From contig CAVYRF010000002.1 in the NCBI GenBank assembly GCA_963770895.1, forward strand, positions 960,001 through 1,024,000: a DNA stretch of 64,000 nt, in the 5' to 3' direction. This stretch comes from an uncultured Acidobacteriota bacterium (GTDB lineage: Bacteria; Acidobacteriota; Thermoanaerobaculia; Multivoradales; UBA5704). This document shows positions 12,256 through 63,532 of this stretch, piece after piece. The notes under the pieces are model-generated. The model was not told where the DNA came from. It ran no database searches and saw only the letters and a program-made list of their open reading frames with translations. A program made the translations under genes and the position numbers. Within the stretch, counting starts at the first letter, position 1. Each line of letters begins with the position of its first letter.

Positions 12256-12530
12256 AGGAGCGCCCCTTCTCGCCAACAAGGCCTTCATTGACAGCAATGC
12301 CATCACTCTTTGTGAGGCACCAAGCCGCCAGAATTGATGCCGCCGGACCGCGCGGGCGCGGGGGTTTCCGTACGGCGACCACATCATGTGGCGCAAAGAC
12401 CAAGAAATTCACTCCAGCGCTACGTCTGAAGGTACCGAGAGCGACTGCCGAACCCCACCCGGCAGGTTCTGTTATTATCGATGAAGACATAGAAATGCGA
12501 AGTAATCCGAGGCATGGAGGGATCACCCTG

Positions 12531-12947: not shown

Positions 12948-12960
12948 ATAGGACTAAGGT

Positions 12961-14109: not shown

Positions 14110-14218
14110 GGGACAGGAGCCGCTGCTGTCGAATCAAAGACGCGGCGACGCCAGACCCCGACAAGGCTCCGAGATGGATCAAACGCTGCGCGCCGATGGC
14201 CCGCGGGCGGCGCCGGGG

Positions 14219-16036: not shown

Positions 16037-16385
16037 TCGCGCTCTCCTCGCTGGCGAAGATGGGCGCGTACTGCGCGAGACCCATGATGTGGAAGGTCTT
16101 TTCGATGGTGGCGGTCAGGCAGCAGAAGCCCAGCTTGCCTTCGATCTCGATCATCTTTTCGATGATCTCGATCAGGATGGAAATGCCGATGGAGTTGACG
16201 ATCTTGGTGCCCGCGAGGTTGAGCAGCAGGACCTTGAAGCCCTCATCGATCAACTTGTAGGCGGCGCGCGCGATCTCTTCGCCGCCCTGGTTGTTGATGT
16301 AACCCTCGGTATAGATCACCGCCAGGCCGGCGCGGCGGTCCACGGTCAGATTCAGGCTTTCGGTCATCGACATCCCCGCTTTCAA
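16017..16385 (-). CDS. STAS-domain anti-sigma-factor antagonist (RsbV-like)
   Basis: About 120 aa STAS fold with 'LLNLAGTKIVNSIGISILI' (phospho-acceptor Ser) and 'KTFHIMGL'. Confidence 0.92.
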   Translation of the reverse strand: MKAGMSMTESLNLTVDRRAGLAVIYTEGYINNQGGEEIARAAYKLIDEGFKVLLLNLAGTKIVNSIGISILIEIIEKMIEIEGKLGFCCLTATIEKTFHIMGLAQYAPIFASEESAIAGLSA

Positions 16386-16819
16386 CGCAGCTTGCTCATC
16401 ACGACGATCGTGCCTTCGGCTCCGGAATGGATCTCCACTTCGTCCATCAGGCCGCGGATGATCTTGAGGCCCCAGCCCCGCTTGCGGCTGGCCTTCAGCT
16501 TATCCTCGATACGGGGTTCGGCCATATGCGTGGACTCGAAGCCGACTCCGGTATCCCGCACCGTGATGCGCAACTTTTCGGGAAGGTCTTTGTCGCCGAG
16601 GACCTGGAAGGTTACGTAGACTTCCCGCTCGCGCGCGTGGCTGTGTTCGATCGCGTTGATGCAGGCCTCAACCACCGCCATCTGCACCTCGCCGATCCGA
16701 TCGGGGCTCATCCGCATCGATTCGGCGACAGCAGTCGCCGTCTTGCCCGCCTCGATCTCGATCTCGGGCACCATCGGCAGCGCCAGCGTGACCTCCCTCA
16801 GCACAACGTCACCAGCCAT
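16382..16819 (-). CDS. Anti-sigma-factor Ser kinase (RsbW-like, HATPase_c_2)
   Basis: Start MAGDVVLREV; 'MAVVEACINAIEH', 'VRDTGVGF', 'RGWGLKIIRGLMDEV'. Confidence 0.93.
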   Translation of the reverse strand: MAGDVVLREVTLALPMVPEIEIEAGKTATAVAESMRMSPDRIGEVQMAVVEACINAIEHSHAREREVYVTFQVLGDKDLPEKLRITVRDTGVGFESTHMAEPRIEDKLKASRKRGWGLKIIRGLMDEVEIHSGAEGTIVVMSKLR

Positions 16820-16848
16820 GTCCGTGCAGTAGCGAGTGAGAATCGCCT

Positions 16849-17007
16849 TCAGAAGGACAGGTAGAGCTGCAGAGCGTAGACCACGATGGGATGCACCAGT
16901 CCGTGTGCCAGCAGCCAGCCGAAGCTGGTCAAGGTTGCAGCGGACAGTAGCACCTTCACCGGCACCTGGGGAACGGCGGTCACGTACCTGCGGACCAGAT
17001 CGGGCAT
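16849..17007 (-). CDS. Small hydrophobic membrane peptide (52 aa)
   Basis: GAGGAG 7 nt before ATG at 17007; MPDLVRRYVTAVPQVPVKVLLSAATLTSFGWLLAHGLVHPIVVYALQLYLSF; lies between a sigma-54 promoter and rsbW. Confidence 0.7.
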   Translation of the reverse strand: MPDLVRRYVTAVPQVPVKVLLSAATLTSFGWLLAHGLVHPIVVYALQLYLSF

Positions 17008-17040
17008 TCGAGTTCTCCTCATCCTCGTCACCCTCCTGTC

Positions 17041-17055
17041 GCAAGCCCCCTGCCA
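17041..17055 (-). promoter_or_regulatory. Sigma-54 (-24/-12) promoter
   Basis: Minus strand TGGCAGGGGGCTTGC (GG-N10-GC; consensus TGGCAC-N5-TTGC), about 35 nt upstream of the small-peptide start. Confidence 0.8.
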
Positions 17056-17095
17056 GATCCGCCGCACCGCCGCCCCCCTCCGGCAAGCCATTTGT

Positions 17096-17108
17096 TATCA
17101 GCGCTTTG
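17096..17108 (+). promoter_or_regulatory. IHF binding site
   Basis: TATCAGCGCTTTG matches WATCARNNNNTTR and lies between the UAS repeats and the sigma-54 promoter. Confidence 0.65.
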
Positions 17109-17128
17109 ACACGCAATCCCCAGCCATC

Positions 17129-17250
17129 TCGACAGATTGTCCCAGGCAGCCGCGCGACAAAATGACCCAAGTTGCCCCGCCCCCCATACGCAGCCGCGGA
17201 TGGAGGCGTCCATTCAGCCCCTGAAAATGGCATGTGGGTCAAAATGTCCC
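17129..17250. promoter_or_regulatory. Three palindromic bEBP upstream activating sequences (GGGACA-N3-TGTCCC-like)
   Basis: tcgaca-gat-tgtccc (17129-17143), gcgaca-aaa-tgaccc (17154-17168), gggtca-aaa-tgtccc (17236-17250). Confidence 0.7.
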
Positions 17251-17289
17251 CGATTGCACCAGGAAGTCGCAGATGATTGAAGCGGACGT

Positions 17290-18762
17290 TCAAAAACCCT
17301 TGCGCTGGAGGGTTTTGCGATCGACGCCCAGGATCTTGGCGGCCTCGCTCTTGTTGCCGCCGGTCAGTTTGAGCACGCGGCTGATGTGGCGGCGTTCCAT
17401 GGCGCCCATGTCGAGCGGCTCCGGCGCCTGCTGCAACGGGGTGCCTAGCAGCGACCGGATGAGGTCGGCGTCGATCTCGCGGTCGGCCAGCGACACCGCG
17501 CCCTCCACCAGGTTTTGCAGCTCGCGCACGTTGCCGGGGAAGTCGTGGGCGATCAGCAGAGCCAGCGCTTCGGGGCGCAGCTGCGGCACCGGAATGCCCT
17601 CCCGCCGGCAGAACTCCTCGACGAAGGTGCGCACGAAGTGCGGGATGTCCTGCCGCCGCTCGCGCAGCGCCGGCAGCTCCAGCTCGACGCCCTTCAACCG
17701 GTAGTAGAGGTCTTCGCGAAACCGCCCCTCGCGCACCAGCGCTTCGATGTCCTGGTGGGTGGCGGCGACCAGCCGCACGTCCACCGGGATCGGCCGCCGC
17801 CCGCCGAGCCGCACCACCTCCCGCTCCTGCAGGGCGCGCAGGAGCTTGACCTGCAGCGAGGTCTGCATGTCGCCGATCTCGTCGAGCAGCAGGGTGCCAT
17901 GGTCCGCCAGCTCGAACTTGCCCGGCCGCGCCTGCACGCCGGTCGCCACCCCGCCCTCGATGCCGAACAGCTCGCTTTCCAGGAGCGATTCCGGCAGCGC
18001 CGCGCAGTTGACTGCGATCAGCGCCCCTTCGCGCCGCGAACGCAGGTGCAGGAGCTTGGCGATCAGCTCCTTGCCGGTGCCGCTTTCGCCCCGCACCAGG
18101 ACGTTGACGCTGCGCGGCGCCACCCGCTCGACGACCTCCAGCACGCGCCGCATCGGCGGCGCCGAAGCGACGATGCGCCGCCCCGCCACCTCGTCGGCCA
18201 GGAACCCTTTGAGCGTCTTGTTCTCTTCTTCGAGGCGCTCGCGCTGCGCCTCCAGCCGCTCGACCTGGCGCGCGGCGTCCAGGGCGACGCCTGCCAGCGC
18301 CGCCACCGAATCCAGGAACCGGCGGTCGTCGGCGGTGAACGCGGCGTCGGCGTCGCCGCGCACCTCCTTGTCGAGCACCGCGAGGTACCCCAGGTAGACG
18401 CCGCGGTAGGCCAGCGGCGTCGCCACCAGGTGCTGGTAGGCCCGCCCGGCCAGCGCTCCCGCGGCGCGCGCCAGCTGCCGCCCTTCGCTGAGCAGCTCGC
18501 GCCACAGCGGCGCCCCGAGCAGCGTCGCGCCGTCCGGCGTGGCGTCGGTCCAGCCGACCACCGCCACCCCGCGCGCGCCGCCGTAGCCGTCGCGCGTCAC
18601 CGCCACCGCCGCCGCCGGATCGAGCACCGCGCAGACGCGGCCCAGCAGCTCTTCGACCAGCTCCTGCTCGGCGCGCTGCGAGTGCAGGGCCAGGGCGAGG
18701 TCGTACAGCGTCTCCAGCTGGAGGATGCGCCGCTTTTCGATCAGGCTGACTTCGCTGCGCAC
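17290..18762 (-). CDS. GAF-domain sigma-54 enhancer-binding protein (GAF-AAA+-Fis HTH)
   Basis: 'VLVRGESGTGKEL', 'VNCAALPESLLESELFG', GVATGV in place of GAFTGA, 'LLDEIGDM', 'FREDLYYRL', 'FPGNVRELQN', HTH 'GNKSEAAKILGVDRKTL'. Start uncertain (GTG at 18762 chosen). Confidence 0.93.
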   Translation of the reverse strand: MRSEVSLIEKRRILQLETLYDLALALHSQRAEQELVEELLGRVCAVLDPAAAVAVTRDGYGGARGVAVVGWTDATPDGATLLGAPLWRELLSEGRQLARAAGALAGRAYQHLVATPLAYRGVYLGYLAVLDKEVRGDADAAFTADDRRFLDSVAALAGVALDAARQVERLEAQRERLEEENKTLKGFLADEVAGRRIVASAPPMRRVLEVVERVAPRSVNVLVRGESGTGKELIAKLLHLRSRREGALIAVNCAALPESLLESELFGIEGGVATGVQARPGKFELADHGTLLLDEIGDMQTSLQVKLLRALQEREVVRLGGRRPIPVDVRLVAATHQDIEALVREGRFREDLYYRLKGVELELPALRERRQDIPHFVRTFVEEFCRREGIPVPQLRPEALALLIAHDFPGNVRELQNLVEGAVSLADREIDADLIRSLLGTPLQQAPEPLDMGAMERRHISRVLKLTGGNKSEAAKILGVDRKTLQRKGF

Positions 18763-18829
18763 GCTCAGGAGCCCCGTGCCTTTCCCGGCGAATCGACTGC
18801 CGCCGCTGCCGCCGCTGCCGCCGCCCCGC

Positions 18830-21688
<2,859 letters not shown>

Positions 21689-37090: not shown

Positions 37091-37563
37091 CCACCCAACC
37101 CGACGCCACTCCGCAGCAGCGCATCGAAGGCGACCTCAAGCAGTCCCTCAAGGCCGGCGACAAGGCCCGCCTGAGCACCCTGCGGCTGCTGCTGACCGAC
37201 ATCAAGAACGAGCGCATCCGGCGCGGCGGCGAAGTGGACCAGGCAGGCTTCGTGGCGCTCGTACGCAAGGCCATCAAGCAGCGCGAAGACGCGGCGGAGC
37301 AGTACCGCGCCGGCAACCGCCAGGAGCTGGCAGCCAAGGAAGAGGCCGAAAAGGAAATCCTGGCCAGCTACCTGCCGGCTGCCGCCAGCGAAGCGGACGT
37401 GCGCGCGGCGATCGCCGCCCTGATCGCCGAGCGCGGCCTGGCCGGACCGGCCGCCATCGGCCCGATCATGAAGGAGATGCTGGCGCGCTTCGGCACCAGC
37501 GCCGACGGCGCGACGATCAATCGCCTCGCCCGCGAGCTGCTCGCCGCCGGCGCCGCGCGCTGA
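37087..37563 (+). CDS. yqeY: GatB/YqeY domain protein
   Basis: 'DLKQSLKAGDKARLSTLRLL', 'KQREDAAEQY', 'EKEILASYLP', 'IGPIMK', 'ADG'. Confidence 0.92.
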
Positions 37564-37572
37564 GCTGCCGGC

Positions 37573-39720
37573 GTGGCCCCTTCCAAGGACCCTGCCCGTC
37601 CCCTTGCCGGCAACGGCGCCAACGGCGCCGGCGCGGCCGGCGCCGAAGGTGCCGCCGATCCCGCGGGCGGCGGCCCACCCAGCCTGCCGCACGCCCTGAT
37701 CGGCACCGCGGGCCACATCGATCACGGCAAGACCCGGCTGCTGCTGGCGCTCACCGGCATCGACTGCGACCGCTGGGCGGACGAAAAGGCGCGCGGCATC
37801 ACCATCGACCTCGGCTTCGCGCACCTGGCCGAAGCGGGGGTGCAGCTCGGTTTCGTCGACGTCCCCGGCCACGAGCGGTTCCTGCACAACGCCCTGGCGG
37901 GGCTCGGCGGCATCCGGGTGATGCTGCTGGTGGTGGCCGCCGACGAAGGGGTCAAGCCGCAGACCCGCGAGCACCTGGCCATCTGCTCGCTGCTCGGCAT
38001 TCCGGCGGCGGTGGTGGCGCTGACCAAGGCCGACCTGGCCAGCGCCGACCTGCTGGAGCTGGCGCAGCTGGAGATCGAAGACCTGCTGGCCGCCACCCCC
38101 TTTGCCGGCGCGCCGGTGCTGCCGGTGTCCAGCCTGACCGGGCAGGGCATCGCGGAGCTCAAGTCCGTGCTGCTGGCCGCGGCGGCGCGCCACGCGGTGG
38201 CCGCCGACCCGCGGCTGCCGGCGCGCCTGCCGATCGACCGCGCCTTCCACCTGCGCGGCCTGGGCGTGGTGGTGACCGGCACGCTGGCCGGCGGCGCGGT
38301 GCGCGTCGGCGACAGCCTGGAGCTGCTGCCGCCCGAAGCGGGGGTCGACGGCGCCGTACGGGTGCGCGCCATCCAGGTCCACGGCCAGGCGCGCCAGGAG
38401 GCTCTCGGTGGCGAGCGCACCTCGCTGCAGTTGAGCGGCGCGCCGCTCGAAGCCCTGCGGCGCGGCCAGCAGCTGGGCACCGTGGGCGCCTTCGCCGCCA
38501 CCACCAGCCTGCTGGCGCGCGTGCAGCTGCTGCCGGGGGCGGCGCCGCCTGGCGGCGGCGGCTTCATGCCGGTGCGGGTCCACCTGCATACCGGCCAGGC
38601 GCTGGGGCGGATGCGCTTTCTGCGTGCGCCGGCCAGCCCGGCGCACAGGGCAGCGGCAACGGCCGGGCCGGAGGCTACGACAGGGCCGGCGGCGACGGCG
38701 GGAACGGCGGCGGCGGAAGCGGCAGCAGCCGAAGCCGGCCAGGCACTGGCCGAGATCCGCCTGCAGACACCGCTGGCCGCGGTGCGCGGCGACCGGCTGA
38801 TCCTGCGCCGGCCGTCGCCCGCCGCGACGCTGGGGGGCGGCGAAGTGCTCGACCCGCGCTGGCGCCGCCACCGCGGCGCGGCGCTCGCCATCGCCCTGCC
38901 CGCCCTCGGCGGCGACGTCGATCGGGCGCTGGCGTTCTGGGCGCTGGAGGCCGGCGAAGGCGGGCTGGACGCGGACGCGGCCGGGCGCCGGCTGGGCGTG
39001 CCGCCGGCGCGGGCCGCGGCGCGCCTGGCCGCGCTGGCCAAGGGCGCCCGGCTGATCGAAGTGGCGGAGGGGCCGGGCCACGGCCGGGTGTGGATCGCTC
39101 CCGCCGCGGTGCAGCGCGTCGTCGAGCGCGCCCGGCGGGTGCTGGCGGACTACTTCGCGCGCCAGCGCCTGGCCGACGGCTGCCCCAAGGCGGAAGCGGT
39201 GCGGCGGATCCTGCGCGGCCGCGCCGCCGACCTGGCGCCGGTCTACCTGGCGTGGCTCGCGGCGCAGAAGGTGCTGGTGGTAAGCGGCGACCAGGTGACG
39301 CTGCCGGGGCGCAGCGCCCAGCTCACCGGCGACGAATCCAAGCTGGCGGCGGCGGCGCTGGCGGAGTTCGAACGCGGCGGCCTGACGCCCCCCTCGCCGG
39401 GCGAGGTGCGCCAGCTGCTCGCCGCCAAGCCGCAGATTCTGGAAGGCGTGCTGCACCACCTGGTGACCCGCGGCAAGCTCCTGCGCCTGCCGGGGGGGCT
39501 GATCGTCGCCGCCAGCGCCATCGCGGAGCTGCGGCGCGAGCTGCTCGCCACCGGATGGGAGCGCTTTTCGGTGCCGCAGTTCAAGGAGCGCTTCAACTTC
39601 AGCCGCAAATGGGCCATCCCGTTGCTGGAGCACCTGGACAGCGCCGGGATCACCCAACGCGCCGGCGACGAGCGCCTGGTGCTCAGGACGCCGCAGCCGG
39701 CGGCAGCGCCGGATCGCTAG
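37573..39720 (+). CDS. selB: Selenocysteine-specific translation elongation factor
   Basis: 'IGTAGHIDHGKT', 'RGITIDLGFA', 'DVPGHERF', 'TKAD', SECIS-binding winged helix 'SRKWAIPLLEHLD...R'. Confidence 0.96.
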   Translation: MAPSKDPARPLAGNGANGAGAAGAEGAADPAGGGPPSLPHALIGTAGHIDHGKTRLLLALTGIDCDRWADEKARGITIDLGFAHLAEAGVQLGFVDVPGHERFLHNALAGLGGIRVMLLVVAADEGVKPQTREHLAICSLLGIPAAVVALTKADLASADLLELAQLEIEDLLAATPFAGAPVLPVSSLTGQGIAELKSVLLAAAARHAVAADPRLPARLPIDRAFHLRGLGVVVTGTLAGGAVRVGDSLELLPPEAGVDGAVRVRAIQVHGQARQEALGGERTSLQLSGAPLEALRRGQQLGTVGAFAATTSLLARVQLLPGAAPPGGGGFMPVRVHLHTGQALGRMRFLRAPASPAHRAAATAGPEATTGPAATAGTAAAEAAAAEAGQALAEIRLQTPLAAVRGDRLILRRPSPAATLGGGEVLDPRWRRHRGAALAIALPALGGDVDRALAFWALEAGEGGLDADAAGRRLGVPPARAAARLAALAKGARLIEVAEGPGHGRVWIAPAAVQRVVERARRVLADYFARQRLADGCPKAEAVRRILRGRAADLAPVYLAWLAAQKVLVVSGDQVTLPGRSAQLTGDESKLAAAALAEFERGGLTPPSPGEVRQLLAAKPQILEGVLHHLVTRGKLLRLPGGLIVAASAIAELRRELLATGWERFSVPQFKERFNFSRKWAIPLLEHLDSAGITQRAGDERLVLRTPQPAAAPDR

Positions 39721-39747
39721 TAAGGACTATTAGATCGAGAGGGACCC

Positions 39748-40122
39748 ATGAAGACCATCGCCGTGCTCGGCGCCTCCGCCGACCGCAGCAAGTTCGGCAA
39801 CAAGTGCGTGCGCGCCTACCTTGCCACCGGCTGGCAGGTCTACCCGGTGAATCCTGCCGGGCACGACATCGAAGGCTTGCCGGTCTGCCACGACCTGTCC
39901 GCGGTGCCGCAGCCGCTCGACCGCGTCAGCGTCTACCTGGCGCCGCCGCTCACCCTCGCCCTGCTGCCGGCGATCGCCGCCTGCGGGGCGCGCGAGGTCT
40001 GGTTCAACCCCGGCGCGGCGGACGGCGCCGTGCTGGCCGAAGCGCGGCGCCTGGGAATCCCCAGCCGCCCCGGATGCAGCATCGTCGACATCGGCCGCAG
40101 CCCGTCCGAGTTCCCCGGCTGA
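39748..40122 (+). CDS. CoA-binding protein (YccU-like)
   Basis: 'TIAVLGASADRSKFGN', 'VYPVNP', 'VWFNPGA', C-terminal 'CSIV'. Confidence 0.92.
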   Translation: MKTIAVLGASADRSKFGNKCVRAYLATGWQVYPVNPAGHDIEGLPVCHDLSAVPQPLDRVSVYLAPPLTLALLPAIAACGAREVWFNPGAADGAVLAEARRLGIPSRPGCSIVDIGRSPSEFPG

Positions 40123-40247
40123 ACAAAATAGAACGGCAAACGTATACAGGCGTAGACTCCGGCTGGATGGCGTCGTAGCGTCAGGCCTGACTCCGCGGGG
40201 GCGGGGCGCCCAATGCCAGGCCGTGGTCCCTTCGGGAGGACGACCAG

Positions 40248-43200
40248 ATGTTTGCGGTGCTCGTGCACCCGGCGCTCTACCAGCGTTTGCGGCGGGGCTC
40301 GCCGGCCTTGCGCTCGCGGGTGCACAAGACGCTGCTGCGGCTGCGCGACGGCCGCTGGGGAGGCGGCACGCGGGTCAAGCGGCTGCGCGGCGCCTCCCAC
40401 GCCGTCTACGAAGCGCGCACCGACGGCGGCGACCGCATGCTCTTCACCATGGCGCGCCTCGCCGCCGGCGGCGGCGACCCGGCGGGCGGCGACGCTCTCC
40501 ATTTGCAGATCTGGGACCTGGTGGAACACGACGACGTCGACCGCGCCGCCCGGCGCACCCGCTCGCCCGAGGCCGGGTTCCTGGCCCTGGCCGCGCTCGA
40601 AGAGTTCGAGATCAGCGAGCCGCCGCCCTATCCCGACGCTCCCTTCAGCGCCTGGAGCGGCGCGGGCGACCAGGACCCGCTGCTGCGCTTCCTGCTGCCC
40701 GACGCCGACCCCGCGGCGGCGGCCGGCCCCGCCGGCGACTCCGCAGCCGACGCCCGGCTTGCCGCGGCCGCCGGCGGAAGCGGGACCGGGGCGGCGCCGC
40801 GCAACGTCCGCTGGTTCCAGCTCGACGCGGCCTGGCTGGCGGGCGAAGCGCAGTTCCAGCAGCTGCTCGACCGCGCCGGCGACCAGCTGGAGCTGAAGCT
40901 GGACGCCGAGCAGCTCCGCATCCTGCGGGCGCCGGGCCCGCTGCTGCTCGCCGGCAGCGCCGGCAGCGGCAAGACCACCCTGGCCGTGCACCGTCTGGCC
41001 GCTGCCGCCCTGGCGCCCGGCGACGGCCGCGCGCTGTACGTCTCGTGCAGTCCGGCCCTGGTCGAGCGCGCCCGCCGGCTCTACGACGACCTGACGGCGC
41101 TGCGCGGTGGCGACGCGGCAGCGTTGCGCGATGGCGACGCGGCGGCGCGGCGCCCCGACTTCTTCACTTTCGACGACCTGTACGCCACCGTGGTGGGGCG
41201 CGACTTCGAGCGCCACCGCTCCCGCCTGATGAGCGAAGCGGCCTTCGAAGAGTGGTTCCGCCGCGCCGGCCGGCCGCTCGATCCGGCGCTGGTGTGGCAG
41301 GAGGTGCGCAGCATCCTCAAAGGCGCCTGCCTGGCCCCCGGCAAGAGCGCCATGCTCGACCGCGACCAGTACTTTGAGCTGGGCCGCAAGCGCGCGCCGC
41401 TCTTTGTCGACCTGCGCCCGCAGATCTACCGCATCGCCGAGCGCTACCAGCAGTGGCTCGCCGAAGAAGACCGCCTGGACTCGATCGATCTCTGCCGCCT
41501 GGCCCTGGGCGAGCTGCGACGGCGCCGCGGCGGACCCTACGACGTGGTGATCTGCGACGAGGTGCAGGACCTGACGGAACTGGAAGTCGGTTTCGTGATC
41601 GCTCTGTCGGCCCGCACCGACCTGGCCGGCGTGATGCTGGCCGGCGACGCCCAGCAGGTCCTGAACCCCAGCGGCTTCCGCTGGGCCGAGGTCCGCCGCC
41701 TGGCCGCGCGCCACGCCCGCCAGCAGGCGCCGCCCGCCGTCCTGCACCTGCGCGACCCCGCCCGCTCCACCGCGCCCCTGTGCGCCTTCGCCAGCGCCCT
41801 GTCCACCCTGCGCCGCGACGTCTTCGGCCGCGGCGACGGCGAGCAAGGCGAAGACGAGCTGCCCGCCACCGCCCCCGGCCCCTTCCCGGTCCAGATCTTC
41901 GGCGATGAGGCGGCCGTCGTGGCATCGATCGTCGCGGTCGCCACCCCCGGCGCCAACGACGCGGGCCACGAGCGCGGCTTGGATCGCGGGAACCCAGCGC
42001 ATTGCGGGTACGACGCCGACGACGCCGGCGGTTGCGCCGTGCTGGTGGCGGATGCCGTCACCGCCCAGGCGCTGCGCGAGCGTCTGCCCGGATGCGCCGT
42101 GCTGACGGTGGCCCAGGCCAAGGGGCTGGAGTTCGACACCGTGGTGATGTGGCGGCTGCTGGCGGCGGACGCCGACCTGGTGGAGCGCCACCTGCGCGGC
42201 GAAGCGCGCGGCGAGCGGGAGGCGCGCTTTGCGCGGCTGCTGCGCTGGCTCTACGTCGCCGCAACGCGCGCCCGGCGCTGCCTGGCGGTCTACGAGGGCC
42301 AGGCGCCGCACCCCTTCTGGGGCCGCGCGCCGCTGGCCGCCGCGCTCGACCCTCTGCCGGCGCAGCACCTGCCGCGCGTCTTCCGCGCCGCCGCCGATCC
42401 GGAGGAGTGGGAGCGCCAGGGCGACTTTTTCGCCGCCCAGGACCTGCCGCGCCAGGCCGCCGAGTGCTACCGCCGCGCCGGCCTGGTGGAGCGCGAAACC
42501 GCAACCCTGGCGCAAGCCGACGAGGCGCGCCAGGATTGGGCGGCGGCGCTCGCCCGCTGGCAGGCGCTGGGCGGCACGGCACCGGCCCGCGAAGCGCCGC
42601 TGCTCGCGCGCCTGGGCCGCTTCGCCGCCGCCGCCGAGCGCTACCGCGCCGCCGGCCAGCGCGCCGCGGCGCTACGCTGCGACCTCCTGCTGCTGGAAAG
42701 CCGCGGCGCCTGGACCGACGCCGCCCGCGGCTGGGAAGACCTGGGCGACGACACGCGCGCCGCCCGCTGCTGGGCCGCCGCCGGCCAACGACGCGCCGCG
42801 ACCGCCGCCACCCTGCGCACCGCCGAAGCCGCCGGCGACTGGCCCACCGCCGCCGCCGGCTGGCTCGACCTCGGCGAGCACGACCGCGCCGCCCGCGCCT
42901 TCACCGCCGCCGCCGACCCCCGCGGCGCCGCCCACGCCGCGGCCCTGGCGCACCGCGAAGCCGGACGCTGGCCCGCCGCCGCCGCCGCCTTCCGCCTGTG
43001 CGGCCGCCGCCAGGACGCGCACCACTGCCTTGCCCAAGCCTTCGAAGCCGCCGGCCGCCCCCGCCAGGCAGCCCGCCACTGGCTGCACCTGGGCGACCCC
43101 GCCAGCCATCGCCGCGCCGTCGATCGCCTGGTCGAAGCCGGCGCCTGGCTCGACGTCGCCCGCCTGGAGCCCGCCGCACCGCCCCCCGCAACCGAATCCG

Positions 43201-43811
43201 CCGGCGCCAAGCCCGGCAGCCGCGTCCTGACCCACATCGAGCAGCTGGTGGCTGACCGGACAAGCGAGCGGGAGGATGGCAACGCTGCCGTCCTGCTGGC
43301 CACACGGAGGGAGGCTCTGACGCCGCTGCTGCCGGAGGTGCCTTGGTTTCTGGCGGGCGCGGAGGAGCGGCGGGCGCGGGCGGAGTTGCAAGCGGTCGAG
43401 CAGCTCGAGCTGCGCCGGCGCGCCATCGCGGCGGAACGGGCGGGGGCTTGGAGCCGCGCCAGCCGGTGCTGGCGGCGGGCGGGCGACCTGCGGCGGGCTG
43501 ACGGCGCGCGCGACCGGCGGATCGCCGGACTTGCCGATCCGCTGCGCCAGGTGCGGGCCTGGTGGCTGACGGGCGACCCTGCCAGCCGCCGGCGTGCCGC
43601 GGCGTTGGCCGCCGGCGCCGCGGCGCGCGGGCCGCTGCTGACTGTCGCCGTCGCGGCGCTGGCTGCTGAAGGTGAGGGCCGCTGGCAGACGGCCGCGGAG
43701 CTGTGGGCGCGGATCGCGCGGCGCGGCGACGTGATGCGCTGCATGGCCCGGGTGGCCGCATTCCGTGACGAGGCGCTGCCGCCGGCCCACGGCGGCAGGA
43801 GGCGGTCCTGA
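40248..43811 (+). CDS. RelE/ParE-like domain + SF1 (UvrD-like) helicase + TPR-like repeats
   Basis: GGAGG RBS; N-terminal 'VKRLRG...VYEARTDGGDRMLF'; helicase 'LDAEQ', 'GSAGSGKTT', 'CDEVQDL', 'AGDAQQ', 'AKGLEFD', 'LYVAATRAR'; C-terminal Trp/Ala helical repeats. Confidence 0.88.
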   Translation: MFAVLVHPALYQRLRRGSPALRSRVHKTLLRLRDGRWGGGTRVKRLRGASHAVYEARTDGGDRMLFTMARLAAGGGDPAGGDALHLQIWDLVEHDDVDRAARRTRSPEAGFLALAALEEFEISEPPPYPDAPFSAWSGAGDQDPLLRFLLPDADPAAAAGPAGDSAADARLAAAAGGSGTGAAPRNVRWFQLDAAWLAGEAQFQQLLDRAGDQLELKLDAEQLRILRAPGPLLLAGSAGSGKTTLAVHRLAAAALAPGDGRALYVSCSPALVERARRLYDDLTALRGGDAAALRDGDAAARRPDFFTFDDLYATVVGRDFERHRSRLMSEAAFEEWFRRAGRPLDPALVWQEVRSILKGACLAPGKSAMLDRDQYFELGRKRAPLFVDLRPQIYRIAERYQQWLAEEDRLDSIDLCRLALGELRRRRGGPYDVVICDEVQDLTELEVGFVIALSARTDLAGVMLAGDAQQVLNPSGFRWAEVRRLAARHARQQAPPAVLHLRDPARSTAPLCAFASALSTLRRDVFGRGDGEQGEDELPATAPGPFPVQIFGDEAAVVASIVAVATPGANDAGHERGLDRGNPAHCGYDADDAGGCAVLVADAVTAQALRERLPGCAVLTVAQAKGLEFDTVVMWRLLAADADLVERHLRGEARGEREARFARLLRWLYVAATRARRCLAVYEGQAPHPFWGRAPLAAALDPLPAQHLPRVFRAAADPEEWERQGDFFAAQDLPRQAAECYRRAGLVERETATLAQADEARQDWAAALARWQALGGTAPAREAPLLARLGRFAAAAERYRAAGQRAAALRCDLLLLESRGAWTDAARGWEDLGDDTRAARCWAAAGQRRAATAATLRTAEAAGDWPTAAAGWLDLGEHDRAARAFTAAADPRGAAHAAALAHREAGRWPAAAAAFRLCGRRQDAHHCLAQAFEAAGRPRQAARHWLHLGDPASHRRAVDRLVEAGAWLDVARLEPAAPPPATESAGAKPGSRVLTHIEQLVADRTSEREDGNAAVLLATRREALTPLLPEVPWFLAGAEERRARAELQAVEQLELRRRAIAAERAGAWSRASRCWRRAGDLRRADGARDRRIAGLADPLRQVRAWWLTGDPASRRRAAALAAGAAARGPLLTVAVAALAAEGEGRWQTAAELWARIARRGDVMRCMARVAAFRDEALPPAHGGRRRS

Positions 43812-45511
43812 CCGCGCCCGCACAGCACCCCGATCCAGCGGCCGTTCGCCGCCTGATCCTGGGCACCGCATCGCCGGTCGAGGCGCGGCAGGTCGTTCGC
43901 CACCTGCTGACCGGCTGCGGCCACTGCAATCGCTTCGCGCACGCCGCCGGCGCCGGCCCGACGGGCGGTGACGACGCCGCGGCGGCGTCTGATTCCGCAT
44001 CCACCGCCGCCCGCGATGCCGCCAACGCCCGCGCCCGAGGCTCGGCTCCCTCCCCGGCCCGCTCTCCCTCCCCGTCCGATTCCGCCGGCGATCCGCGGGA
44101 CGCCTCCAAGTACGACCAGGTGTTTGAGCGCATGAAGGAGCGCCTGCGCTCCGCGCCGCTCGGCGACTCGCCGGCCCATGACGCCGATGAGGACGCGCCG
44201 GAGGCGCCCGCGGCAGCCGGCGATGGGCGACCAGGCGCAGAAGCGGCACTGCCCTCGCCGGGTGCCGCGCCGTCGGGCACCCTCGCCATCTCCACCGCCC
44301 CCATCATCCGGCCCGGCCGCCCGGCGCCGGGCGCCGCGGACCTGGCGCGGCAGACGCTAGCCGCCGGCGGCGCCGCCGGGGCGGGAGCCGGCGCCGGCGC
44401 CCACGAGCTGTACGCCGAGCTTTTGGGGCACGACGCGGTGCAGGCCCTGACGCAGGTGCAAAGCACCCGGCGCTACGCCTATCTGGCGCTGTGCGAGCTC
44501 CTGCTGCGCAAGAGCTTCGGCCTGGAAAACGGCACGACGGCGGCGGCGGGCGTGGGCGACGCGGCGGCGATGGCGGCGCGCTGCGTCGTGGCGGCGGCCG
44601 AGGTCGCGGAGCTGCTCGACCTGGAAGTCTACGGCGCGCCGGTCGTCCAGGACGTGCGCGCCATCGCCTGGACCTATTTCACCGGCGGCGAGAGCATGCA
44701 GGAGGACATGCGCACCGCCGAGGTTTCGCGGCGCCTCGCCGCGCGGCTGCTCGCCGGCAGCGCCGACCGCGCACCCGGACGGCCGTCGCTGCTCGCGGCG
44801 CAGGCGGCGCTCGCCGGACATTGCGGACATTTTGGCGAGTCGCTGCGCCTGCTCACCGGCGCGGCCGGGTGCTATCGCCGCACCGATCAGGCTCACCTGG
44901 CTGCCCGCTTCCTGCTCAAGAAGGGCATGGCGCTGGGCAACGCCGGCGAAACCCAGGCCGCCGTCCGCCTGCTGTGGCGCGGCCTCGACACCATCGAGCC
45001 GGCGCGCGAGCCGCGGCTGCTGGTGTGGGCGACCCACAACCTCGCGTGGTTCCTGCACGAAGCCGGGCGCACCGGGCAGGCCGCCTCGTGCATCGAAGCC
45101 GCCCGCAAGCTCTATCGCGCGGCGCGCGACCGCCGCGAAATGTCGCGCTTGCGCTGGCTGGAAGGCAAGCTCGCGGCCGACTTCGGCACCGCCGAAACCG
45201 CCCTCGCCGAGGCCCGCGACGGCCTGGCGCGCGAGGGCCTGGCCTACGAGGCGGCGCTGGCCGCGATGGATCTCGCCGTGCGCTATGCCGGCGAGCGGCA
45301 GGCGGCGCGGATGCGCCAGCAGGCCGACGGCATGCTGGCGCTGTTCCGGTCGGATAGCATGTACGGGGAAACGGTCTTCGCCATGCGCTCCTTCCGCGAG
45401 CACGGCGGCGGCGACGACCCCAGCGACCTGTTGCGCGACCTGACCGCCTACCTCGACCAGGCCCGCCGGCCGCAAAACCCCAAGGCCCTGGCAGCCAGCA
45501 TTCCGCCCTGA
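43808..45511 (+). CDS. Zinc-finger (zf-HC2-like) + TPR-like protein, probable CTG start
   Basis: Frame open upstream of track start 44120 back to a stop at 43766-43768; AGGAGG (43797-43802) 5 nt before CTG at 43808; N-terminal 'HPDPAAVRRLILG...VVRHLLTGCGHC'; helical repeats 'RLRWLEGKLA...YEAALAAMDLA'. Confidence 0.8.
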   Translation: MTAPAQHPDPAAVRRLILGTASPVEARQVVRHLLTGCGHCNRFAHAAGAGPTGGDDAAAASDSASTAARDAANARARGSAPSPARSPSPSDSAGDPRDASKYDQVFERMKERLRSAPLGDSPAHDADEDAPEAPAAAGDGRPGAEAALPSPGAAPSGTLAISTAPIIRPGRPAPGAADLARQTLAAGGAAGAGAGAGAHELYAELLGHDAVQALTQVQSTRRYAYLALCELLLRKSFGLENGTTAAAGVGDAAAMAARCVVAAAEVAELLDLEVYGAPVVQDVRAIAWTYFTGGESMQEDMRTAEVSRRLAARLLAGSADRAPGRPSLLAAQAALAGHCGHFGESLRLLTGAAGCYRRTDQAHLAARFLLKKGMALGNAGETQAAVRLLWRGLDTIEPAREPRLLVWATHNLAWFLHEAGRTGQAASCIEAARKLYRAARDRREMSRLRWLEGKLAADFGTAETALAEARDGLAREGLAYEAALAAMDLAVRYAGERQAARMRQQADGMLALFRSDSMYGETVFAMRSFREHGGGDDPSDLLRDLTAYLDQARRPQNPKALAASIPP

Positions 45512-45613
45512 GCCAGCGCCCCGGCGCCGCGACGACACGCCGACCCGGCGGCCCGGGGAAGCGGAGCCGATGCCCCAGAGACCACCGCGAACCACCAGGA
45601 GACCCGCCGACCC

Positions 45614-46804
45614 ATGCCGCCACAGATCCCCGACACCGAGCTGCTGGCCCGGCTGGTCGGCTTCGACTCGACCAGCCGCAACAGCAACCTGCCGATCGCG
45701 GATTTCCTCTGCGACTACCTCGATCGGCCCGGCATCCGCGTGCACCGCAACCTGTCGAGCGCGGGCGACAAGGCCAACCTGATCTTCACCGTCGGTCCGC
45801 CCCACGACGAAGCCGCCGGCGGCGACGGCAGCGGAGCCGGCCCGGCCCGGCCCGGCCTGGTGCTGTCGGGACACATGGACGTCGTGCCGGCCGAGGAGGC
45901 GGGTTGGCAGAGCGATCCCTTCACCCTCACCGACCACGCCGACCGCCTGGTCGGGCGAGGTGCCTGCGACATGAAAGGCTTCCTCGCCCTGGCCGCCAAC
46001 CTGGCGATCGAGGCCAGCGGCGGGCGGCTGGCCCACCCGCTGGCGCTGCTCTTCACCTACGACGAAGAGGTGGGGACCCTGGGCGCCAAACGGCTGGTCG
46101 AAAGCTGCGCCGCGGCGCGCTCGCTGCCCTCCAACGCGGTCATCGGCGAACCCACCTGCCTGCGGGTGGTGCGCGCCCACAAGGGCCACCTCACCATGCG
46201 GGTCACCCTGCACGGCCGCAGCGCCCACAGCGGCTACCCGCACCTCGGGCAGAATGCCATCGAACCCGCCGCCCTGGTGGTGACCGCTCTCGCCGGCCTG
46301 CGCCGCCAGCTGGCCGCCGAGTCGACGCCGCACGCCGAGCTCTTCCCCGAAGTGCCCTTCGTGCCGCTCAACGTCGGCAGGGTGCACGGCGGCGCCGCCA
46401 TCAACGTCGTCCCCGACCGCTGCGTGATCGAGCTCGGCATGCGGCGGCTGCCCGGCGGCGACTCGCGGCAGCTGGCGGCGCGGGTCGAGCAGATCGTCCA
46501 GGACGTGGCGGCCGGCTGCCAGCCCCAGGTGGAGGTCCTCACCGACAGCCCGCCGCTGCTGGCGGCGAACGACGCGCCGGTGGTCCGCCGCCTGCTGGAG
46601 CTCAGCGGCCAGCAGGAACCGCAAACCGTCTCCTATGCCACCGACGCCGGATGGCTGCAACAGCTCGGCATGGATTGCGTCCTGTTCGGTCCCGGCTCGA
46701 TCGACGTCGCCCACCGCCCCAACGAGCACCTCCCCAAGGCCGACCTTGCCGCCGCTCGCCAGGTGATCGGTCAGGCGGTCGCTGCGTTCTGCGCCGAGAC
46801 CTGA
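45614..46804 (+). CDS. argE: M20 family deacylase (ArgE-like)
   Basis: 'LSGHMDVVP', 'GRGACDMKGF', 'YDEEVG', 'IGEPT', 'GRSAHS', 'GPGSIDVAHRPNE'. Confidence 0.85.
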   Translation: MPPQIPDTELLARLVGFDSTSRNSNLPIADFLCDYLDRPGIRVHRNLSSAGDKANLIFTVGPPHDEAAGGDGSGAGPARPGLVLSGHMDVVPAEEAGWQSDPFTLTDHADRLVGRGACDMKGFLALAANLAIEASGGRLAHPLALLFTYDEEVGTLGAKRLVESCAAARSLPSNAVIGEPTCLRVVRAHKGHLTMRVTLHGRSAHSGYPHLGQNAIEPAALVVTALAGLRRQLAAESTPHAELFPEVPFVPLNVGRVHGGAAINVVPDRCVIELGMRRLPGGDSRQLAARVEQIVQDVAAGCQPQVEVLTDSPPLLAANDAPVVRRLLELSGQQEPQTVSYATDAGWLQQLGMDCVLFGPGSIDVAHRPNEHLPKADLAAARQVIGQAVAAFCAET

Positions 46805-60970: not shown

Positions 60971-63532
60971 TCAGGCGGCCGGGAGGCCGGCGGGCTGCGG
61001 CCCCGGGCGCCCGCCACCGCCAGGCGGCCGACCGCGGCGACTCCAACGACCGCGGAGACCCCGGCGATCGCCAGCGCGGGACACCAGCGCCAGCCCGAGC
61101 GTGACGGCCAAGGCCAGCCCGCCGAGCGCCGTGCCGGCGAGCAGGCCAGGCGGCCGGTAGGCCAGGTCGACGCGCTGCACGCCGGGCGGCACCACGACAC
61201 CCAGAAAGGCGCCGTCGACGGTGATCTCGGCCAGCGGCCGGCCGCTGTCGCCGCCACTGCCGCCATTGCCGGCGCCGGCGGTATCGGCGGCCTGCGCCCG
61301 CCAGCCGTACGGACCGGCGAGCGAGGTGGCGAGCAGCCGCACGCCCGCGCCCGGCACCGCCAGCCGCGCCCATCCCGGACCCGACGCCAGCGCGCGCGCC
61401 GGCGTCACGGCGGCCGCCGGGCGGCTCGCACCCGCCCCTGCCCCTGCCGCCGGCGTGGGAGCCGCGCCGCCCAGCGGTACGCCGGCGAGCGCCGGCAGCT
61501 GGTCGCGATACACCGCCACGCGGCCGGCGTCGTCCATCCTGGCCAGCCAACCGGTGAACGCCGCCCGCTCGATCGGCTCGATCGCCGCCGGCACGAACCA
61601 GCGCGGCAGCGCCCGCGGGTTGCGGTAGACGATGAACGGCAGCAGCTCCGGTTCGTCGAGCGGCACCAGCGTCCTGGGCCGCGGCAGGTAGAGGTTGCCG
61701 ACCGCCGCGCGCACGCCCAGGAAGGACATCATCGGGTGGTCGGGATGGCGGAAGGCGGCGTAGTAGTTGAGCAGGGTGGGCGCAAACCCGCCGGCGTACT
61801 CCAGCACCTGCAAATACGAGGACGGCACCATCACCTGGTTGGTGCGGATCTCGGCGATGCCGTACGCCGGCAGCAGCGACGGGTACACCAGCAGGTCGAT
61901 GCCCACGGCGCGCCACGGCGCGCCGGCGCCGGTGGGCGCCGTCTCCCTGGCCAGCACGCGCGTCAGCGGGTTGGCCGGCAGGAACAGCTCCGGCTGGCCG
62001 CGCGGCAGCAGCCGCTCCGCCCACGGTCCGAGGTCGAGCGCCAGGGCCAGCGCCAAGACCGCCACTGCCATGCCCCGCCGCCGCGGCGCCAGCAGGGCGC
62101 CGGCCGCGAGCAGCGCCCAGCACAGCACCACCCACGCCGACCGGTCGCCCACCAGGCTGACCACCGCCGCCACCGCCAGCGCCGCCAGCGCCCGCCGGCG
62201 CGCCGCGGCCGTCAGGCGCCGCAGCAGCAGGTCGACGCCGAAGCCGCCGGCCACCGCCACCGCCAGGCTGCACACCGGCAGCAGCCGCGTGTACGCCGGC
62301 AGCCGCAGCGCCGGCACCCGCTCGACGAGCAGCGCGAAGGGCACGAAATCACCCGCCACCAGCAGCGCGGCGACGGCGAAGCCGAGGAAGGGCAGGGCGC
62401 GCCGCGCCTGCCGTCGCCGCCAGCCGACCAGCGCCACCGTGGCGCCGGCGAAGGCGACCAGGCCGGTGTAGCCCGACAGCGCGTCGACCCAATCTTCCGG
62501 GCCCTTGAACGGCTCCTGGTACGGAATCCCGTACACCCGCGGGTTGGTCGGCGCCAGCACGAACTTGGCGCTCGCCGGCACGAACCAGCTGCGCGGCGAC
62601 AGCAGCCGCGCGTCGTGGTCGGGCAGGTGCAGCGCCAGCATGTCGCGCGTGCGCTGCGCCTGCGGCAGGGCGCGCACGAACGGTAGGATGACCGGCGCCG
62701 CCAGCGCGAAACCGAGCAGCGCCGCCGCCCCCGCCGCCGCCAGGCCGCGCGGCAGGCCGGTGCGCCGCCGCCGCAGGCCGATGCCGCACGCCGCCACGAA
62801 GAGGCCGCCCGCCGCCGCGGTCTCGGGATGGGCCGACAGCAGCAGGATGGCGGTGACCACCGCCGTGGTCGCCACCGTCAGCGGCCGCGGCCGCCGGAAC
62901 AGGCGCACGCAGCCGACGGCGAGCCACGGCACCCAGCACAGCACGGTGGTATGCGGATAGAGCCCCCACGACAGCATGCCGCCGCCCAGGGTGAAGCCCG
63001 CCGCCGCCAGGCCGCTGGCGGCACGGCTGATCCCCGCCTGGCGCGCCAGGAGCCAGGCGCCCTCGCACGCCACCAGCAGCTTGAGGACCAGCACCACCAG
63101 CAGGAAGTACTGGATCGGCAGGACGCGCGACAGCATGGCGAGCGGCGACAGCACGCCCAGCAGCGGATTGATCCAGGGCGAGCTGCCGCCGTCGATGACG
63201 TCGGACCACAGCGGCAGCCGGCCGGCGCGCAACGCGTGCCGCACCTCCAGCTCCCAGGGCAGCAGCTCGTAAAAGGTGTCGCTCTGGATGATGTGGGTGG
63301 AGCGCACCACCGCCGGCGGCGCCGCCGGCAGCACCCCCGCCAGCACGCCGGTCGGCGCCAGCAGGACGTTGTCGCGGAACAGGAAGGGCGCCAGCAGGAC
63401 CAGCGGCAGGATCAGCCCAAGCGCCATCGCGCGGCGCTCCAGGCGCACGCCGAGCCCGCGCGCCAGCAGCCAGCAGAGCGCCTGGACGACGGCGAGCAGC
63501 AGACAGACTTTGAGCGGCAAGCCCAGCAGCAC
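60971..63532 (-). CDS. YfhO-like polytopic membrane protein (GT-C-like)
   Basis: 'GRLPLWS...GGSSPW.NP', many TMs, C-terminal 'GWRA...FLGVVVPPG...YRPPG' then TM. Confidence 0.8.
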   Translation of the reverse strand: MLLGLPLKVCLLLAVVQALCWLLARGLGVRLERRAMALGLILPLVLLAPFLFRDNVLLAPTGVLAGVLPAAPPAVVRSTHIIQSDTFYELLPWELEVRHALRAGRLPLWSDVIDGGSSPWINPLLGVLSPLAMLSRVLPIQYFLLVVLVLKLLVACEGAWLLARQAGISRAASGLAAAGFTLGGGMLSWGLYPHTTVLCWVPWLAVGCVRLFRRPRPLTVATTAVVTAILLLSAHPETAAAGGLFVAACGIGLRRRRTGLPRGLAAAGAAALLGFALAAPVILPFVRALPQAQRTRDMLALHLPDHDARLLSPRSWFVPASAKFVLAPTNPRVYGIPYQEPFKGPEDWVDALSGYTGLVAFAGATVALVGWRRRQARRALPFLGFAVAALLVAGDFVPFALLVERVPALRLPAYTRLLPVCSLAVAVAGGFGVDLLLRRLTAAARRRALAALAVAAVVSLVGDRSAWVVLCWALLAAGALLAPRRRGMAVAVLALALALDLGPWAERLLPRGQPELFLPANPLTRVLARETAPTGAGAPWRAVGIDLLVYPSLLPAYGIAEIRTNQVMVPSSYLQVLEYAGGFAPTLLNYYAAFRHPDHPMMSFLGVRAAVGNLYLPRPRTLVPLDEPELLPFIVYRNPRALPRWFVPAAIEPIERAAFTGWLARMDDAGRVAVYRDQLPALAGVPLGGAAPTPAAGAGAGASRPAAAVTPARALASGPGWARLAVPGAGVRLLATSLAGPYGWRAQAADTAGAGNGGSGGDSGRPLAEITVDGAFLGVVVPPGVQRVDLAYRPPGLLAGTALGGLALAVTLGLALVSRAGDRRGLRGRWSRRGRPPGGGGRPGPQPAGLPAA

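Follow-up and report, generated by a model that had tools for sequence, protein, structure and literature searches.

This analysis concerns a two-gene locus of an uncultured Acidobacteriota bacterium (GTDB lineage Thermoanaerobaculia; Multivoradales; UBA5704), situated in a stretch of 64,000 nucleotides (nt) of contig CAVYRF010000002.1 (assembly GCA_963770895.1, positions 960,001 to 1,024,000), hereafter the window, in which a gene for a large helicase with a predicted RelE-fold domain at its N-terminus is followed directly by a gene for a smaller partner protein. The window has a G+C content of approximately 74%, and mechanical lists of its open reading frames (ORFs) are crowded for this reason. 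The main gene (40248-43811, forward strand, as are all features below unless stated otherwise) starts with ATG and encodes 1187 amino acids (aa). It is a real gene, with G+C values at codon positions one, two and three (GC1/2/3) of 0.82/0.58/0.91 that match the pattern of the window's real genes, a Shine-Dalgarno-like GGGAGG (40234-40239) 8 nt 5' of its ATG, and 168 homologues (E ≤ 1e-3; 8000 candidates scored), of which many align over the full length with 40-59% identity. The gene is single-copy in its own genome (8.16 Mb in three contigs). A scan of 37300-46000 restricted to sigma-70-type promoters and intrinsic-terminator-like sites found neither. Among public runs on record as RNA, none was listed as containing this stretch.

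The encoded protein is built of a RelE-fold domain, a superfamily 1A (SF1A) helicase and an alpha-solenoid. The N-terminal domain (N-domain; aa 1-104, 40248-40559) has a RelE/ParE (BECR) fold according to AlphaFold2 (AF2), Foldseek and VIA-align. It is joined by a linker (aa 105-189, 40560-40814), consisting of a short segment conserved in the alignment and then an Ala-rich, acidic stretch predicted to be disordered, with a predicted local distance difference test (pLDDT) score of 33-69 for the linker, to the helicase core (aa 190-715, 40815-42392), which is of UvrD/PcrA type by Pfam, Foldseek and the positions of its motifs. The solenoid of Trp/Ala-rich helical hairpins (aa 716-1187 and the stop codon, 42393-43811) completes the protein and is its fastest-evolving part. 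The full-length AF2 model has a pLDDT of 78. A preliminary description of this gene, made from the letters of the DNA, had proposed the same three-part architecture of RelE-like domain, helicase and helical repeats, and AF2, Foldseek and VIA-align bear it out; every sequence string that it quoted was also found at the residue given, both in the N-domain (VKRLRG at aa 43, VYEAR at 53, DRMLF at 62, HDDV at 94) and in the helicase (GSAGSGKT at aa 236, DEVQD at 437, GDAQQ at 466, DPARS at 503, AKGLEFD at 624, TRARR at 673). The linker is indeed acidic (Asp and Glu 14% against Lys and Arg 6%; Ala 26%) and mostly disordered in the full-length model. Median identity within the clade is 62-65% for the N-domain, 56-61% for the helicase, 49-50% for aa 716-973 and 31-36% for aa 974-1187. 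Judged by these alignments no other region of the protein is as well conserved as the N-domain, and conservation of this strength would not be expected of a structural spacer.

The second gene is placed at 43808-45511 and would encode 567 aa if translation starts at CTG, comprising an H..HxxxxCxxC motif, a low-complexity insert and a TPR_12/MalT-like tetratricopeptide repeat (TPR) domain. The mechanical ORF list starts it at GTG 44120, and the ORF called from there has no Pfam match. Its frame, which is -1 relative to that of the helicase, is open from 43769 and holds no ATG, GTG or TTG before 44120. The placement is made because CTG 43808 is the counterpart of the ATG with which the partner gene opens in relatives (93 nt 5' of the motif in six loci), because AGGAGG, the likely ribosome-binding site of the partner, precedes this codon by 5 nt (43797-43802, inside the end of the helicase gene), and because the junction is intact in a related contig. 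That contig comes from a public run, is approximately 93% identical and covers 43781-44070, where 43797-43811 is unchanged and no base is inserted or lost singly; it is a single contig of depth 5.4, possibly from the source sample itself. Translation of the partner therefore probably begins at CTG 43808. This codon and the stop codon of the helicase overlap as CTGA, and with AGGAGG in front of it the site may be a true non-canonical start that is translationally coupled to the helicase gene. We also considered that the split into two genes arose artificially or through a frameshift of recent date, so that the native product would be one fused protein of approximately 1750 aa. In favour of this, the partner frame is open at -1 and lacks a conventional start codon before 44120, fused forms of 1431-1533 aa occur in eight loci, and the genome is in three contigs, for which long-read assembly is a guess. 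Nonetheless, the helicase shares its last residue with a 92%-identical protein of a separate data set, residue 1 of the partner as read from CTG 43808 aligns with the start Met of unfused relatives and has AGGAGG 5 nt in front of it, and the related contig, with the limits just given, shows no 1-nt indel, so that we give a fused native product only the slimmest of chances.

The association of the two genes was examined across 74 related loci, 37 of them close relatives. A homologue of the partner follows the helicase gene in 29 of the 37 close loci, and seven of the other eight stop at a contig edge. The order helicase-partner-helicase-partner is seen in six loci, from which it follows that the pair has been duplicated as a unit, and the two are fused in at least 11 ORFs of eight loci (1431-1533 aa). 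Additionally, within the GTDB family the partner is present (E ≤ 5e-93) in 35 of the 37 other helicase-positive genomes and in none of 54 helicase-negative ones, in which the best matches (1e-28 to 2e-51) are paralogues. The preliminary description had treated the large protein as a single-gene system, and this does not hold in view of a downstream gene that is conserved, co-duplicated, co-occurring and sometimes fused; judging from this linkage, the downstream protein is an obligate companion of the large protein in the window's clade. The same description had noted that no antitoxin is adjacent. No small antitoxin gene is indeed found on either side, as the 125-nt spacer upstream holds no ORF and the protein downstream (445-567 aa) is not of a known antitoxin family; a conserved partner gene does, however, lie directly downstream. 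In one related locus (L045:8001-11294) the helicase gene was matched as six pieces in different frames, 3 kb from the partner, and is possibly a pseudogene or an assembly error.

The putative zinc-binding motif of the partner (43826-43927) consists of His7, His32, Cys37 and Cys40, the last three spaced as His-x4-Cys-x2-Cys, and all four are invariant in the 18 aligned partners and fused C-termini. We take this His/Cys motif to resemble those of the zinc-binding anti-sigma (ZAS) proteins. In both, an upstream His precedes a His/Cys motif near the N-terminus of a protein that ends in a sensor-type repeat domain, whereas the spacing in the partner is x4 rather than the x3 of Pfam zf-HC2, and no gene for an extracytoplasmic function (ECF) sigma factor is adjacent. 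Pfam zf-HC2 itself touched only one of eight partner proteins, weakly (E 0.072). TPR_12 matched partner orthologues at up to 2e-8 and exceeded the Pfam cut-off in two, and a partner profile run against PDB sequences gave matches at chance level (E 0.04-0.15). The partner belongs to an expanded family, with 18 paralogues of 27-35% identity in its own genome, three of them in tandem on contig 1 (examples lie at C2:3750552-3751637, C2:471874-473412 and C1:576668-582599), and with at least 21 matches in most genomes of the GTDB family. These paralogues have no constant neighbour, ECF sigma factors included, among 54 GC3-filtered ORFs in 10 regions of the organism's own genome; a gene with sigma-70 region 2 lies a few kilobases away in one of the 10. 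A complex prediction for aa 760-1187 with the partner scored 0.00 against a mark of 0.32, the controls not having been run, and weighs neither way.

For aa 1-120 of the large protein, AF2 with an alignment of 26 sequences (their N-terminal ~120 residues, taken from loci in a number of phyla) gives a model of the N-domain with pLDDT 87.2 and a predicted template modelling score (pTM) of 0.81. The topology is beta-alpha-alpha-beta4-alpha, with strands at 3-6, 44-46, 53-57, 62-70 and 84-93 and helices at 8-16 and 19-33. In Foldseek the leading matches are RelE, YoeB, YafQ and ParE toxins, none with an E better than 6e-3. In VIA-align all of the top 50 entries are RelE-superfamily toxins (RelE, YoeB, HigB, YafQ, ParE and Cami1; Z 7.0-10.4), led by a HigB-type toxin (Z 10.4, root-mean-square deviation 2.4 over 93 aa), with the RelE domain of Cami1 at Z 9.8 (2.7 over 101 aa) and RelE on the 70S ribosome at Z 8.5. 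As a confident model and two structural comparisons all point to the RelE superfamily, the assignment of the N-domain to the RelE/ParE fold by modelling is sound, and the RelE/ParE-like reading of the preliminary description, for which a Foldseek comparison had been suggested, is upheld at the level of fold. Membership of the RelE family by sequence is not established, since no curated family model is significant. Pfam (E ≤ 1), NCBIfam and PADLOC have no match to aa 1-200 of the window protein; member by member, Pfam YoeB_toxin (best 3.4e-4), Gp49 and HigB-like were each touched by three of the 26 sequences. A profile of the domain found three marginal matches among PDB sequences, all in the RelE superfamily (YoeB at E 0.36-0.38 and RelE3 at 0.77), and hhalign against a profile of nine natural YoeB homologues gave a probability of 23% and E 8.8e-4. 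A canonical small gene of the YoeB family was also seen in the same genome outside the window (C2:4811940-4812182; Pfam YoeB_toxin, 64 bits), so the organism has ordinary RelE-superfamily toxins as well.

The N-domain family is rare, as its profile matches only 349 proteins among 1.84 billion cluster representatives, 199 of them at E ≤ 1e-10. Among the best 150 of the 349, 96 are at least 800 aa long, 13 have 400-799 aa and 41 are shorter, although the short ones may be fragments. A P-loop is present in 108 of the 109 members of at least 400 aa, and the domain is N-terminal in nearly all; on this count it is dedicated to this type of helicase. In the same 150 proteins K44, R57 and R63 are invariant (150/150 each), as is H94 (147/147), and E55 (148/150) and D95 (139/147) are nearly so. 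R57 and R63 align with Arg59 and Arg65 of YoeB and K44 with Glu46, on which the alignments with S. aureus YoeB and with the hhalign profile agree. According to a study of YoeB, Glu46 is the general base of that enzyme and Arg59, Arg65, His83 and Tyr84 are catalytic or substrate-contact residues (PMC3814384). H94-D95 directly follows the last strand, where YoeB has His83-Tyr84. Overall, such a conserved Lys/Glu/Arg/Arg/His/Asp set has the look of a catalytic constellation more than of a purely structural one.

RelE and ParE are not told apart by their fold alone, and an alternative in which the N-domain is ParE-like was weighed. The target of the domain would then be a DNA enzyme (gyrase, for example), to be bound or poisoned, or the domain would simply make contact with a protein; the helicase would work on DNA, and no RNA would be cleaved. 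ParE proteins are among the structural matches (ParE1 at Z 8.6, a chimeric ParE at 8.0, ParE2 at 7.5-7.6) and the helicase is a DNA-type SF1A enzyme, yet the best structural and sequence matches are the ribonucleases (RNases) HigB, Cami1, RelE, YoeB and YafQ, and the invariant Arg, Arg and His coincide with catalytic or substrate-contact positions of YoeB, the His by its place in the secondary structure. We regard a ParE-like function as very improbable. It should be noted that Pfam does not cleanly separate RelE from ParE, as stated in the abstract of Gerdes's survey of mono- and multidomain RelE/ParE toxins, a paper in which the terms helicase, UvrD, TPR and SF1 do not occur (PMC11980606).

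The helicase core appears, from its motifs and the model, to be an intact UvrD/PcrA-type SF1A enzyme. Pfam UvrD-helicase, UvrD_C_2 and Viral_helicase1 exceed their cut-offs, motifs I, II, III, V and VI are intact (aa 236, 437, 466, 624 and 673), and the best Foldseek matches of the full-length model (1e-9 to 1e-7) are PcrA (1e-9), UvrD (8e-9) and Rep, with AdnB, HelD, FBH1 and SF1B RNA helicases ranking below these. The protein is not an ortholog of UvrD, PcrA, Rep or HelD, as the NCBIfam equivalogs score 10-24 bits against cut-offs of 419-1144 (PcrA 23.7 against 911), and motifs specific to the family, such as LG(R/K)KRAPLF, are present. Motif IV had been called degenerate in the preliminary description, rightly so: in DPARS (aa 503) the residue at 504 is Pro, in contrast to Asn in at least 90% of the 28 relatives in the alignment, with the invariant R506 retained. 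The window protein shares this change with a 92%-identical relative, along with a lineage-specific, low-confidence insertion of approximately 30 residues at aa ~565-595 (41940-42030).

The C-terminal 472 aa are rich in Ala (26.7%) and Trp (3.8%), with W-x6-W pairs partly spaced at 43 residues, and are modelled as a solenoid of helical hairpins with helices of 10-14 residues (aa 716-1187; pLDDT above 90 for aa 718-973). The earlier proposal of a TPR array holds as far as a Trp/Ala helical-hairpin solenoid is concerned, as composition and AF2 model both indicate. In Pfam the window protein reached none of the TPR models at E ≤ 1, so that TPR denotes a likeness of this tail and not a membership that has been measured, although some homologues carry precomputed TPR_1, TPR_2 or TPR_8 matches. 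An Atlas feature search with the region returned TPR/SNAP-like neighbours at 0.80 or below, a level that shuffled sequences also reach. A likeness to eukaryotic TRANK1-type proteins had been suggested as well; no relatives of 2079-5000 aa, the length range in which TRANK1-like proteins would fall, appeared among 2967 scored candidates for a query of aa 190-760, which is weak evidence, and nothing joining TRANK1 with prokaryotic UvrD was found in the literature searched.

The distribution of the gene is patchy. It is present in 38 of the 92 genomes of its own GTDB family (23 of 56 among the high-quality ones), in one of nine other species of its genus and in 16 of 41 genomes of the largest genus, where complete single-contig genomes occur both with and without it. 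In a class-wide sample at least two of 201 genomes have the gene, a floor set by a stricter filter. Homologues that include the N-domain are scattered over phyla, being found in Acidobacteriota, Terriglobia, Aminicenantes, Rokubacteria, Binatia, Lentisphaeria, Verrucomicrobiota, cyanobacteria, Clostridia, Paenibacillus and Fusobacteria. Culturable carriers identified by name are Paenibacillus kobensis NBRC 15729, Clostridium lentum NSJ-42, Aphanothece hegewaldii CCALA 016 and Euhalothece natronophila, the last on a plasmid. Two cyanobacterial plasmids, Crinalium epipsammum pCRI9333.06 (L109) and Euhalothece natronophila pEu1 (L108), carry full members (N-domain E 1e-36 and 4e-40), and next to one of these copies lie genes for ParA, a DUF262/DUF3696 pair and integrases. 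After the Euhalothece copy come a gene annotated as a 3'-5' exonuclease and three small kinase-like genes, with a second UvrD-like gene nearby. The family thus behaves as an accessory rather than a universal gene.

The surroundings of the pair in the window are of core type throughout, comprising MoxR, PCMT, TldD, SpoIIE/STAS, sigma-54 activators, UvrA, LpxC and kinases as well as SelB, an M20 peptidase, an amidohydrolase, SRAP, DsbD and ProRS. In the clade the order SelB-(CoA-binding)-helicase-partner-M20-amidohydrolase-SRAP is conserved. A functional link with SelB was considered and rejected. The adjacency of SelB is no functional clue because it is part of this longer block of conserved order, and a protein of 1566 aa (P0073), in which SelB domains are joined to the family, is probably a gene call across frameshifts, since SelB, helicase and amidohydrolase are each matched in several frames at that locus (L013), which belongs to a public metagenome-assembled genome whose assembly appears noisy. 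Elsewhere in the window, two 2-kb bins of lower G+C (0.645 against ~0.74; 12001-18000) flank a SpoIIE-GAF phosphatase and a STAS-domain gene (14219-16385), which form a partner-switching pair and are followed by a sigma-54 activator and UvrA at 17290-21688. Two further well-formed ORFs on the reverse strand, 60971-63532 (853 aa) and 4175-5173 (332 aa), have GC3 values of 0.93-0.94 and no Pfam match at E ≤ 1e-5.

Could the large protein be a housekeeping helicase, engaged in DNA repair, in the removal of R-loops or transcription complexes or in ribosome or mRNA quality control, with the RelE fold as a docking or RNA-binding module or as a constitutive processing nuclease and the TPR partner as an adaptor? 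The order among the core genes SelB, M20, amidohydrolase and SRAP is kept in 29 loci, the 64-kb window is free of defence genes, no small antitoxin gene accompanies the pair, the helicase is closest to PcrA, UvrD and Rep with the RNA-polymerase-bound HelD also among the matches, and Y-family polymerase genes adjoin two distant homologues (L042 and L043). The preliminary description had regarded vertical inheritance in a housekeeping context as a sign against its own proposal. The locus from SelB to SRAP is indeed conserved, but the pair is repeatedly missing from it in sister genera: three sister-genus genomes keep the SelB-CoA-binding pair at the same place without the helicase and without the orthologous partner, their best partner matches being at the level of paralogues. 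The absence of the gene from 54 of the 92 family genomes, complete single-contig ones included, and, under the stricter filter, from 199 of the 201 genomes in the class-wide sample, its tandem duplications and fusions, the plasmid-borne copies, the scatter over phyla and the catalytic look of the invariant residues all speak against a housekeeping role, which we consider rather unlikely but the main rival to our own proposal. On balance, a regulated accessory effector that spreads horizontally accounts for the evidence better than a housekeeping enzyme does.

The preliminary description had instead favored a stand-alone antiphage sensor, whose own TPRs detect a phage trigger and whose helicase then licenses the RelE-like RNase, with no partner involved. 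Its layout of effector, NTPase and repeats is confirmed. An HMM (hidden Markov model) of the partner found no relative at E ≤ 1e-2 in six-frame ORFs of 39 more distant loci, and as no partner gene was found beside the distant homologues at the sensitivity used, the large protein may suffice in other phyla. The neighbours of distant homologues (121 ORFs in 21 loci) are mostly metabolic, with a handful of restriction-modification, nucleotidyltransferase/restriction endonuclease (REase), Macro/HNH, RHS and Y-family polymerase genes; those of restriction-modification, nucleotidyltransferase/REase and Macro/HNH type, together with the DUF262/DUF3696 pair, count in favour of the sensor. On the other hand, in the window's clade the downstream gene is inherited and duplicated together with the helicase gene and in places fused to it, and the defence reading itself found no direct support, as PADLOC yielded only generic GajB-type core matches and neither a defence island nor a phage copy came to light. 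A partnerless phage sensor is thus quite improbable, and a role in antiphage defence in any form is unproven. No GHKL/Tiamat-like gene is adjacent to the helicase gene in the window or in the 21 distant loci examined.

Comparison with known systems helps to place the family, although no description of it was found in the literature searched and public annotation names its members only as 'UvrD-helicase domain-containing protein' or 'TPR repeat protein'. The pair appears to represent a rare and undescribed family. With the mRNA endonucleases RelE, YoeB, HigB and YafQ it shares the BECR fold (Z 7-10.4 over ~80-93 residues) and Arg at the positions of YoeB Arg59 and Arg65. These toxins are, however, small stand-alone proteins with an antitoxin, whereas here the domain forms the N-terminus of a 1187-aa helicase without a small antitoxin; Lys replaces Glu46, sequence similarity falls below significance in Pfam and PDB, and RNase activity is putative. 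Cami1, a CARF-RelE ancillary ribonuclease of type III CRISPR systems (8phj/8phb), is likewise a RelE-fold nuclease tethered to a larger regulatory module, but its regulator is a CARF domain that binds cyclic oligoadenylate, in place of which the window protein has a helicase, a solenoid and a TPR partner, with no CRISPR context. Gabija GajB and the UvrD, PcrA and Rep helicases have Pfam UvrD-helicase and UvrD_C_2 in common with the window protein, and GajB is the source of the partial PADLOC matches; the window protein differs in its RelE-fold N-domain and its 470-aa solenoid, and no gene of the type of GajA, the ATPase-TOPRIM nuclease with which GajB is paired in Gabija, is present in the window. 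A further comparison is with CnuH of the CoCoNuT systems (types II and III-A), which we take to be UPF1-like; the helicase here is instead of UvrD/PcrA type, carries the RelE-fold domain at its extreme N-terminus and has no adjacent McrB/McrC, HEPN or OB-fold genes. In the CoCoNuT report, CnuH helicases are described as carrying an 'RNase toxin-like' (RTL) domain of RelE/colicin-D fold (Bell et al., eLife 2024, PMC11090510). As in our family, a RelE-fold domain lies N-terminal of an SF1 helicase that is predicted to target RNA, and nuclease activity is likewise unproven, in the case of CnuH within McrBC-type (CnuB/C) operons that also involve an SmpB-like OB fold and HEPN (CnuE) partners (PMC11090510).

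The locus is best explained as an accessory module of two genes, which certain relatives carry as a single fused gene. More specifically, we propose a helicase-coupled RNA-cleaving module, whose N-domain would act like RelE or YoeB under regulation by the solenoid and the TPR partner, and to which we assign a probability of roughly 45%. In this proposal a domain resembling RelE/YoeB-type endoribonucleases would be tethered by the flexible linker to an ATP-driven SF1A translocase and a fast-evolving solenoid. The solenoid and the TPR partner would form a scaffold for regulation or recognition, the helicase would supply nucleic-acid-dependent ATPase activity and translocation, and the N-domain would be an RNA-cleaving enzyme whose most plausible substrate is ribosome-bound mRNA, as it is for RelE, YoeB and HigB. 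It follows from these proposed roles of scaffold, motor and nuclease that the module would be a gated effector directed at translation or RNA in stress or genetic conflict, and not an essential housekeeping enzyme. The analysis establishes the folds, motifs, invariant residues, partner linkage and patchy distribution; RNase activity, ribosomal target, gating logic and biological role go beyond it and are what we infer.

Several observations weigh against this proposal. The similarity of the N-domain to RelE-family toxins is marginal in sequence (E 0.36; hhalign 23%) and no better than 6e-3 in Foldseek, a Lys (K44) stands where YoeB has its general base Glu46, and H94 would correspond to His83 by its position in the secondary structure alone. 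UvrD/PcrA-type helicases are as a rule DNA enzymes, which makes a role of this one on RNA or the ribosome a conjecture, and motif IV of the window protein departs from the consensus. The two-gene design is shown for the window's clade only, as the partner was not found beside distant homologues. With regard to genetic conflict, there are no defence genes or islands in the whole 64-kb window, PADLOC gives only partial, generic helicase-core matches (best GajB, 6e-15 over separate stretches), no neighbour gene, of defence or any other type, recurs in the 21 distant loci, no phage record matches the family, and one fixed chromosomal position across the clade fits vertical descent with losses better than mobility.

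A bolder version of the helicase-coupled module can be formulated. Here the pair would be an RNA-targeting machine of a class not yet described in prokaryotes. A UvrD-type motor would carry a catalytically competent, ribosome-dependent mRNA endonuclease of YoeB/RelE type on a flexible tether, gated by the solenoid and the zinc-finger/TPR companion; its function would parallel, in bacteria, that of mRNA surveillance coupled to a helicase or of antiviral translation shut-off, and it would spread sparsely by horizontal transfer with repeated gain, loss, duplication and fusion. The logic of helicase plus endonuclease is known from Upf1/SMG6 and from the Schlafens. This version is compatible with the evidence, and we consider it less likely than not.

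RelE-family nucleases are small toxins restrained by small antitoxins, and the RelE fold has only recently been seen as an effector domain of larger immune proteins, namely in Cami1 and in the RTL domain of CoCoNuT CnuH. The family described here would add a third design, in which a RelE-fold domain is hard-wired to a UvrD-type ATPase, with repeat proteins in the controlling role that an antitoxin has elsewhere. Should the nuclease prove active and directed at the ribosome, the pair would offer a tractable system for understanding how an NTP-driven motor licenses a nuclease that targets translation, and its regulation could be approached through the naturally occurring split and fused forms of the partner. 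Should it prove inactive, the family would show how a helicase has taken over a toxin fold for docking.

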